Source: Escherichia phage LorandFenyves_Bas91. From it: a stretch of DNA of 64,000 bases. Location: the sequence record PQ850614.1, one strand, 5' to 3'. The position numbers and the translations under genes are program-made. The notes under the pieces are model-generated. The model was not told the origin of the DNA and ran no database searches. It saw only the letters and a list, made by a program, of their open reading frames with translations. Shown here one piece after another: positions 45,458-46,819 of this stretch (position 1 is the stretch's first letter; every line of letters starts with the position of its first letter).

Positions 45458-46819
45458 TTAGTTATTTGTTTCCATGTCAAAAGAGATTCCACGACCCGCT
45501 TCATCGGCAAACCGAACTGTTCGGGTTTGAGGTTCTAATACTTCAGGGTTGTTAGCAACAAACCGATCAGCGAGACTACGACTGACAGTCTCAGCTAATT
45601 CACCATGAGAAGGGATATCAAGACTACCTACCACATCTTGGGCCACACCTTCATCAGTCCACACAGCCCTAACAGGTGCGTTGATATCACCAACAGCAAA
45701 ACCCTGACCAGAGAACTGACGTGCGCTAACAGTTAAACCGTTTGGTCGACCACGAGAAGGTCTAGCCATCCATCGCTCCATAGAATCACTTGTAATACCA
45801 AGAGCTTCTTCAAAAGATGTTCTACGAGTAGGGCTTACTCTTCGTGACTCTTGTGCTCGACGCATTGCAGGGGCTACAAACACCCCTTCAATTGCATTGT
45901 GTCGGTTAGGTTCCTCTTCTCGACCAAGCAGATCACCACCCGTGTTAGTCGTTAAATTTGTCAACCCCTCAGACCAATACGCATGAATCTGACCAGAACC
46001 GTGAAGGCTAGACATAATCTGAATCTCTTCATAAGGGATTCCAAAGAATCGACTCATGTCTCGGTTGACACAATATAGAGCACTTGTTGTATCTTCAATA
46101 AGAGAAACCTGACCTAATCCATTGACTAAATGACTAACTGGCTGAGGTGTGGGAAGATATCGAGTTTGGGCCATGTATTGATGTGCAACTGCTGGAGAGG
46201 AAAATCTCAACACTTGTGAGTTAGGCCACTTCTTGTGAACATACCTGATTTCACGACTAGAGACAACCACTGGACAAGGGGAAGTCATAGCCAAATATCC
46301 GTGAGAAGTCATGAATAATTTGTCAAGAGTCATCGCACCACGGCACATCATAGGAAAATTATCCAATACCTCTTCAATAGAAGTAGGATAATTAAACATG
46401 AATTGGATACGAACCCCATTCCACTGAAACTCAATAATATCAGTGAATGTTAATTGAGAACCCCCAGCATAGGATTCGTTTGTAGCTTCAGCAAGAAGTG
46501 ATGCATATTCAATATCTTGTGACTCTAGCCATTCCTTCACATTACTTTCAATCTCCCGTCCAAGCTCTTGCCAACGATCAGTTGGGATGAAAGTGTTTTG
46601 AGTTCTTGGTGTTTGTCCTCTGACAATAAAGATATCAATGTCATGTGGAGCTATGTTATTAAGGACAGCATCACGAACAGCCCCACCAGTAATGATGGGA
46701 CAGATACCATCTGGAATCAAGTTGTTGTTAATCAACTGTTCAATGAAGTGACGACCAACAGTGATATCAGGTTGTTGAGCAACCTTATCTTCAATTTGGT
46801 TAATCGGGATAACAATCAT
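45458..46819 (-). CDS. nucleotidyltransferase with CCA-adding enzyme / poly(A) polymerase-type head domain
   Basis: CPIITGGAVRDAVLNNIAPHDIDIFIV matches the GGxVRD...DxD signature; compare E. coli Cca LVGGAVRDALLG...DRD; long C-terminal region of unknown function. Confidence 0.6.
   Translation of the reverse strand: MIVIPINQIEDKVAQQPDITVGRHFIEQLINNNLIPDGICPIITGGAVRDAVLNNIAPHDIDIFIVRGQTPRTQNTFIPTDRWQELGREIESNVKEWLESQDIEYASLLAEATNESYAGGSQLTFTDIIEFQWNGVRIQFMFNYPTSIEEVLDNFPMMCRGAMTLDKLFMTSHGYLAMTSPCPVVVSSREIRYVHKKWPNSQVLRFSSPAVAHQYMAQTRYLPTPQPVSHLVNGLGQVSLIEDTTSALYCVNRDMSRFFGIPYEEIQIMSSLHGSGQIHAYWSEGLTNLTTNTGGDLLGREEEPNRHNAIEGVFVAPAMRRAQESRRVSPTRRTSFEEALGITSDSMERWMARPSRGRPNGLTVSARQFSGQGFAVGDINAPVRAVWTDEGVAQDVVGSLDIPSHGELAETVSRSLADRFVANNPEVLEPQTRTVRFADEAGRGISFDMETNN

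Follow-up and report, generated by a model that had tools for sequence, protein, structure and literature searches.

Class II nucleotidyltransferases of the polymerase beta (Pol-beta) fold use an RRD motif to sense the ribose 2'-OH. They are defined by motifs A to E of their catalytic core, and the Asp and Arg of their EDxxR motif proved irreplaceable in selection experiments (PMC11784652). The CCA-enzyme label has also been given to a phage protein, gp74 of phage SU10, as early as 2014 (PMC4281155), and similar wording is used in GenBank, RefSeq and one metagenome record; phi32_73 of phage phiEco32 is annotated as a hypothetical protein. Here we analyse the ortholog of gp74 and phi32_73 in Escherichia phage LorandFenyves_Bas91 (PQ850614.1), using a stretch of 64,000 nucleotides that we call the window. 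An earlier note on this DNA had described the gene as encoding a CCA-adding-enzyme-like protein. The gene is real and was previously annotated, and its CCA or tRNA interpretation is unsupported. The statement best supported by sequence and structural model is that its product is an active, minimal, class-II-derived Pol-beta nucleotidyltransferase (NTase), for which a nucleic-acid 3' end seems the most probable acceptor (rough probability 0.45).

We searched 1.84 billion representative proteins with HMMER and obtained 42 hits, about 30 of which are true members of the family, with lengths of 274 to 482 residues. The open reading frame (ORF) reported earlier, with GGAVRD at residues 45-50 and DID at residues 60-62, is present as described (Table 1), and its catalytic Asp residues do align with the CCA-enzyme fold, D60 and D62 matching the DxD of CCA enzymes. 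Residues G45, G46, R49, D50, D60 and D62 are invariant over 26-31 members, at identities down to about 24%, and the list of family-invariant residues further includes F64, Y117, I128, Q139, P156, Y193 and K197. At positions 127 and 190 every member has Asp or Glu (residue 127 in 26 of 26 aligned members). In the model D127 lies on the strand after a long helix, a location that fits the Pol-beta fold. Judging from this conservation, the invariant GG loop, the DxD strand and the third carboxylate match what is expected of a Pol-beta NTase that is active.

The full-length AlphaFold model is confident in its N-terminal part and has a predicted local distance difference test score (pLDDT) of 23-44 over residues 283-453; residues 1-285, modelled with a deeper alignment, reach a pLDDT of 89.3 and a predicted template modelling score (pTM) of 0.86. 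Together the two models indicate that about 285 residues are folded as one domain and that about 170 are predicted to be disordered. The shortest family members (274-285 residues) stop where the folded part of the window NTase stops, and the tail is absent from them. The folded part contains the elements of the minimal Pol-beta fold, namely the hG[GS] loop, the [DE]h[DE]h strand, a third carboxylate on a later strand and the alpha-beta-alpha-beta-alpha-beta core. When the predicted structure was compared with the PDB using Foldseek, CCA enzymes ranked at the top (E 7e-5), CCA-adding and A-adding enzymes being the nearest solved folds, and CD-NTases scored far more poorly (E > 0.05). Small head-only phage NTases were matched in BFVD at E 1e-8 to 1e-4. 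Searches with sequences were much less productive: direct whole-protein searches of PDB, NCBIfam and PADLOC gave nothing useful, nothing was returned beyond the motif A region from Pfam, NCBIfam, PDB or PADLOC, and the family profile matches a psychrophilic CCA enzyme in the PDB through motif A only (E 0.0027). The earlier statement that roughly 300 residues after the head have no motif thus holds for sequence searches and fails for structure, as about 115 of them belong to the confidently folded catalytic domain and the remainder to the disordered tail.

The catalytic domain has motif A in its class II form, GGxVRD followed by DxD. The RRD of motif B is found in none of the family members at the aligned place, compared to 18 of 18 class II controls (there is one unaligned RRD in a tail). 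Motif D, [DE]DxxR, is not conserved in the 29 members, again compared to 18 of 18 controls, and shows a few sporadic unaligned matches. Neither the tRNA-binding neck, body and tail domains (PF12627 and others), nor the C-terminal domains of poly(A) polymerase I (PAP I; PF12627, PF12626), nor HD or PolyA_pol_RNAbd domains were found in the NTase. The Pfam PolyA_pol head (PF01743) scores 18.7 bits against a gathering cutoff of 23, and it reaches E < 0.01 in just 5 of 26 family members. Direct profile-profile alignments to E. coli Cca, to PcnB and to a profile of 27 class II sequences recovered motif A alone, with 5-24% probability, and then continued in a spurious register. We therefore mapped the motifs using small head-only phage NTases as intermediates. 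The family aligns to these proteins in hhalign with 99.4% probability (E 2.6e-21, residues 28-174 of the window NTase), and they in turn align to class II CCA and PAP enzymes with 96.2% probability over 161 columns. This bridge places the class II R-R-D-F-T-x-N on N154-F155-P156-(gap)-M-M-C159, indicating that RRD has been lost and that the Asn of the motif corresponds to Cys. A family-private motif, [DE]xxYxxxK, lies on a helix of the model near the place expected for motif D, and may replace the EDxxR nucleotide template. The protein conforms to the Pol-beta definition and carries motif A, and it departs from class II enzymes in motif B, motif D, domain architecture and Pfam score. On these grounds neither 'CCA-adding enzyme' nor 'poly(A) polymerase' is a suitable label for the protein. 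Its best structural match and the PADLOC models do not place it among defence-type NTases either.

Many Kuravirus NTases (among relatives P0002-P0042) and some PcnB proteins (P0140, P0145, P0169, P0170) carry PF26128.2 as a precomputed Pfam label. We set PF26128 aside as evidence, since local hmmscan never returned it, it is absent from the literature and it is also found on PcnB proteins.

The tail differs from the folded core in its evolution. Kuravirus NTases are 80-95% identical, and their length variation consists wholly of modular indels in the last ~170 residues. In six Kuraviruses the ratio of nonsynonymous to synonymous substitution rates (dN/dS) is 0.125 for residues 1-240 and 0.37 for the tail, indicating strong purifying selection on the core and a tail that is genuinely coding, under a constraint that is relaxed but still present. 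In the same six genomes dS itself is 0.24 in the tail and 0.55 in the core, despite the threefold higher dN/dS of the tail; recombination or constraint at the nucleotide level are possible reasons. In many members of the family the tail is basic, with an isoelectric point (pI) of 10-12. An aromatic docking motif at the C-terminus showed only a weak trend across family tails, and we do not claim one.

Region 44000-49500 of the window has an identity of 98.9% with Escherichia phage vB_EcoP-CHD5UKE1 and of 97.7% with SU10, and it is matched in 99 phage records with hosts that are nearly all Escherichia or Shigella. These matches identify the window as part of a Kuravirus (phiEco32-like, Gordonclarkvirinae). 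The NTase protein is 99.8% identical to that of CHD5UKE1 and 97% identical to that of SU10 in tblastn, and its match to PHROG 12715 spans the whole protein (residues 1-453, profile positions 1-457, E 2e-262). The window NTase and two distant members, used as tblastn queries, retrieved the same 97 phage records, all of them Escherichia or Shigella Gordonclarkvirinae, and the gene is present in essentially all records of this group. With the orthologs of Nieuwekanaalvirus (EP335, Bas89) and Suseptimavirus (Bas86) the identity is 30-40% in the first ~240 residues, and the C-terminal parts do not align. In SU10, one peptide of the ortholog was found by mass spectrometry, and coding sequences 69-125, which include it, were assigned to the early class (PMC4281155). 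The gene starts with ATG at 46819 and ends with TAA at 45458-45460. A longer version starting with GTG at 46876 is unlikely, as every homolog starts with MI(V/K/T)IP at the Met that aligns with this ATG, and 1 nt separates the ATG from the stop of the exonuclease gene upstream (TGG AAA ATG TAA a ATG).

The genomic neighborhood of the NTase gene is conserved. SU10, Bas89, Bas86 and EP335 share the order primase/helicase, exonuclease subunit, NTase, dCTP deaminase, as do metagenomic relatives with an NTase of just 25-33% identity; a PF22769 DCD protein is the downstream neighbor at every distant locus. Between the exonuclease gene and the NTase gene there is an overlap of 4 nt, direct abutment or a gap of 1-2 nt, which widens to 23 nt in the most distant locus. 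Further along the module are genes for a thioredoxin, a thymidylate synthase and a Dps/ferritin-like protein and, in some relatives, an anaerobic ribonucleotide reductase. This distribution marks the NTase gene as a lineage-restricted core gene of a replication and nucleotide-metabolism operon. A scan of the NTase gene region for promoters and terminators gave nothing above chance. The coordinates of the gene, its parts and the relevant neighbors are listed in Table 1.

Table 1. Features of the NTase gene and of associated loci in the window.
Feature	Position	Strand	Remarks
NTase coding sequence, complete, 453 residues plus stop	45458..46819	-	ORF list, PHROG, tblastn, SU10 annotation
Class-II-like NTase head, residues ~1-170	46310..46819	-	N-terminal helix, beta1-GG-helix, DxD strand, long helix (residues 80-100), strands with D127 and Q139
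Family-private C-terminal subdomain of the folded core, mostly helical, residues 171-285	45965..46309	-	
Predicted disordered tail, residues 286-453	45461..45964	-	Lineage-variable, modular indels; pLDDT 23-44
Basic R-rich tail segment, residues 313-372	45704-45883	-	pI 11.9, charge +5.7
Acidic tail end, residues 373-453	45461-45703	-	pI 4.3, charge -8.1
Motif A part 1, G45-G46-A47-V48-R49-D50	46670..46687	-	Aligns to GGAVRD of PDB CCA enzymes
Motif A part 2, D60-I61-D62	46634..46642	-	Two putative metal-binding carboxylates; aligns to DxD of CCA enzymes
D127, candidate third catalytic carboxylate	46439..46441	-	Strand of residues 125-133; putative assignment
Counterpart of class II motif B, residues 154-160, N-F-P-M-M-C-R versus R-R-D-F-T-x-N	46340..46360	-	Transitive profile alignment
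Family-private motif [DE]190-x-x-Y193-x-x-x-K197 (EIRYVHKK)	46229..46252	-	29/29 members; helix of residues 188-197 in the model
DNA polymerase 3'-5' exonuclease subunit gene, upstream	46821..47378	-	Stop 1 nt before the NTase ATG
dCTP deaminase gene, downstream	44915..45448	-	Start 10 nt past the NTase stop
tRNA-Arg(tct)/UCU	63450-63525	-	16.6 kb from the NTase gene

Several other observations concern the module and the early region. The family-A DNA polymerase is split, its exonuclease gene being located several kb from the polymerase gene. Within that module, at 42817-43092 (-) and 43341-43952 (-), lie genes for a thioredoxin and for a Dps/ferritin-like 'DNA binding protein'. The split polymerase and the phage's own thioredoxin suggest a T7-like replisome that brings its thioredoxin along. 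Three tandem ORFs at 44299-44508, 44508-44717 and 44717-44914 (-), of 69, 69 and 65 residues, look like paralogs, with a common T-R-x-x-A-R...K-K core and KV(I/H/Y)Y ends; they are hypothetical proteins in SU10. The early region of SU10 (L001:12716-17575, L015:528-1334; the syntenic region lies upstream in the window) contains a cluster of genes for an amidoligase (COOH-NH2 ligase), a class II glutamine amidotransferase, an ATP-grasp protein ('ribosomal protein S6 glutaminyl transferase') and a gamma-glutamyl cyclotransferase. This cluster is kept even in distant metagenomic relatives, and looks like a peptide- or metabolite-modifying system.

All the closest relatives of the NTase act by extending the 3' ends of nucleic acids, and the tails of many family members are basic, which makes a 3' end the likeliest acceptor. 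In the mechanism that we propose, D60, D62 and D127 would hold two Mg2+ ions, and the GGAVRD loop (through R49) and the invariant K197 would grip the triphosphate of an incoming nucleoside triphosphate (NTP) or its deoxy form (dNTP). Template-independent transfer of the nucleotide to an acceptor hydroxyl would follow, the 3'-OH at the end of an RNA or DNA being the most probable acceptor. Nucleotide choice would rest on residues other than those of class II enzymes, the helix carrying [DE]190, Y193 and K197 being the candidate. The enzyme would be expressed together with the replication and nucleotide-metabolism genes, in translational coupling with the exonuclease subunit, and its disordered tail would probably tether it to nucleic acid or to a protein partner. 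Polyadenylation or tagging of RNAs, which the earlier note offered as a fallback, may also be what the enzyme does.

Several points weigh against a nucleic-acid 3' end as the acceptor, or against parts of this mechanism. Pol-beta NTases also use proteins, antibiotics and free nucleotides as substrates. The folded core is acidic, with a median pI of 5.0 and a net charge of about -11; as the head plus neck of E. coli Cca is equally acidic, this charge carries no weight either way. A nucleic-acid-binding domain was not detected in the NTase, and with the shortest members tailless the nucleic-acid-binding surface is conjectural. The position beside replication genes could be mere operon packing. 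The correspondence of the [DE]xxYxxxK helix to motif D derives from its position in the model and from alignment by eye, and the hhalign alignment of the family stops at residue 174, before this motif. Finally, the searchable literature contains no measured activity for this NTase family or for the small head-only phage NTases.

The enzyme could instead nucleotidylate a protein or a small molecule, as in AMPylation-type takeover of the host or anti-defence, or it could synthesize or consume a signalling nucleotide. The acidic core and the lack of a detected nucleic-acid-binding domain would suit such targets, as would the early class of the gene, and the disordered tail could serve for docking to a target protein. 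A possible lead in this direction is Gad2, an anti-Gabija protein predicted to be a phage NTase. We nevertheless consider such a target unlikely, given that class II heads are clearly the best matches in both structure and sequence, that PADLOC returned no match and CD-NTases scored poorly in Foldseek, and that a core gene fixed in a replication module would be unusual among anti-defence accessory genes.

It is also rather unlikely that the NTase acts on DNA as part of the replication module, where it would modify phage DNA or DNA ends, or ready a modified nucleotide, alone or together with the dCTP deaminase, and would stand behind resistance to restriction-modification (RM) systems. This explanation draws on the strict synteny with primase/helicase, exonuclease subunit and dCTP deaminase and on the coupling to the exonuclease gene, and loss of the RRD that senses the ribose 2'-OH would allow the use of dNTPs. 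Humolli et al. 2025, in their study of the BASEL collection, found Gordonclarkvirinae to be remarkably RM-resistant without known modification or inhibitor genes and pointed to the pair of dCTP deaminase and nucleotidyltransferase as a possible sign of DNA modification (PMC11990801). The window retains 38 EcoRV, 12 EcoRI, 9 EcoKI and 107 EcoP1 sites; resistance to those systems therefore does not come from site avoidance, which again speaks for a DNA-directed factor. To our knowledge, however, no Pol-beta-fold NTase makes a DNA base modification, and the nearest folds act on RNA. The phage thymidylate synthase makes a simple dU-DNA scheme unlikely, and a small 'anti-restriction nuclease' annotated nearby in SU10 could explain the RM resistance. 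Nearly a hundred sequenced genomes of the group have been deposited, and we assume that heavy modification would likely have drawn comment.

A more specific version, which we regard as a long shot, is a replisome-associated, template-independent NTase that lacks RRD, selects its nucleotide with the [DE]-xx-Y-xxx-K helix, acts on DNA, primers or the dNTP pool and is the missing factor behind RM resistance. If the NTase did protect DNA, it would be the first class-II-type NTase head recruited to that purpose.

Compared with Markov-2 expectation, some sites are strongly avoided over positions 1-64000 of the window: CCWGG occurs 4 times versus ~104 expected, GATC 132 versus ~303, PstI 0 versus 22 and BamHI 0 versus 12. 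EcoRV sites are enriched (38 observed, 21.5 expected).

The earlier note had proposed a role in repair or maturation of tRNA 3' ends, for instance to counter host nucleases. An enzyme of that kind would add CCA, CC or A, so that the tRNAs of phage and host stay chargeable when such nucleases damage their ends. This role is improbable. The nearest solved folds, the class II type of motif A and the CCA-enzyme wording in databases would agree with it. So would the tRNA-Arg(UCU) gene, which does lie in the window as that note said and was the sole match of an Rfam scan. CCA-end repair is unlikely because the class II motifs are absent: with N-F-P in place of RRD, EDxxR missing from the aligned place, no body or tail to bind tRNA and a PolyA_pol score below the cutoff, the protein would not build CCA in the class II manner, the Asp and Arg of EDxxR being irreplaceable (PMC11784652). 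The host, E. coli, supplies a Cca and a PAP I. The supposed partnership with the tRNA does not survive either. The tRNA gene ends ...CGTCCCG-A-CCA and so encodes its CCA, as does the tRNA-Arg(UCU) of SU10 (L015:8057-8132), which has a very different sequence at the same locus. Most members of the group carry one tRNA, and the tRNA is explained by codon usage, AGA making up ~20% of phage Arg codons versus 3.6% in the host (PMC9965538). Co-occurrence of NTase and tRNA therefore cannot discriminate between hypotheses. The fixed partners of the NTase gene are replication and nucleotide-metabolism genes, at a distance of 16.6 kb from the tRNA, and nothing ties the two together beyond presence in one genome.

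The two tRNA-Arg genes differ in every stem and have loops and CCA in common, within flanks that are about 98% identical. The allele of the window was found by blastn in 8 phage records, in some of them beside an HNH endonuclease, and the locus looks, from these comparisons, like a site of tRNA allele replacement. The 8 records had raised the idea that the tRNA is sporadic, which is ruled out by the SU10 tRNA-Arg(UCU) at the same locus and by the published survey (PMC9965538).

That the protein is catalytically dead and keeps an NTase-like fold for a structural or regulatory role is barely credible: motifs B and D are lost and no activity is reported in the searchable literature, but the GG-R-D loop, both DxD aspartates and an acidic residue 127 are invariant down to about 24% identity and the core has a dN/dS of 0.125.

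An NTase of this kind matters beyond a single phage. It is encoded by a universal core gene of Kuravirus and relatives, which are common coliphages and therapeutic candidates, and it stands for a much larger group of phage proteins, head-only and 'CCA-enzyme-like', to which annotation routinely gives the mistaken label of tRNA nucleotidyltransferase. The absence of the motifs that define CCA enzymes guards against such mis-annotation. It is noteworthy that, in a core phage gene, the class II template motifs appear to be replaced by a private invariant motif. The family frames the question of which acceptor and which nucleotide a class II head uses after losing its template and the domains that bind tRNA. 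Genetics should be tractable, since BASEL phages that are 98% identical infect E. coli K-12; one is SkaterBoy_Bas90, with a locus of 98% identity, which infects K-12 that has its O-antigen restored.

Among known systems, class II tRNA NTases and PAP I (1miv, 3h37/5hc9, 4wby, 1ou5, 3aql) have RRD, the Asn of motif B and EDxxR, whereas the window NTase has N-F-P, Cys and no EDxxR. It also differs from them in an additional long helix, which sits between the DxD strand and the sheet strands that follow, and in having the private helical subdomain of residues 171-285 and the disordered tail rather than a neck, body and tail, PolyA_pol_RNAbd or HD domain. The stand-alone CCA-adding-enzyme head of Streptococcus pneumoniae (NP_344798.1, PDB 2la3) is bacterial and tailless, with 191 residues, and matches the window NTase more weakly than do full class II enzymes. 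MenT/AbiEii toxins and CD-NTases have lower structural scores and other signature motifs, PADLOC gives no hit for the window NTase, and its gene lies in a phage replication operon, unlike a toxin-antitoxin or CBASS operon. The small head-only phage NTases are proteins of ~170-290 residues, PHROG 1614-like (the window NTase matches PHROG 1614 at E 1.9e-7), many from Autographiviridae (LKD16, phiAS7, PP2, Ninurta) and often annotated as 'tRNA nucleotidyltransferase'. Like the window NTase they are phage-borne, and both groups have GGAxRD, DxDxF, a Gln on the second strand and, where class II enzymes have RRDFTxN, F-[DP]-x-x-(x)-C. The Gordonclarkvirinae NTases are longer, with their own C-terminal subdomain and often a long disordered tail, carry [DE]xxYxxxK where the small phage NTases have an RGxRFxERY helix, and occupy a fixed place in the replication operon. 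Because the C-terminal halves differ, we read the kinship between the two groups, as traced by sequence, as membership in the same superfamily.

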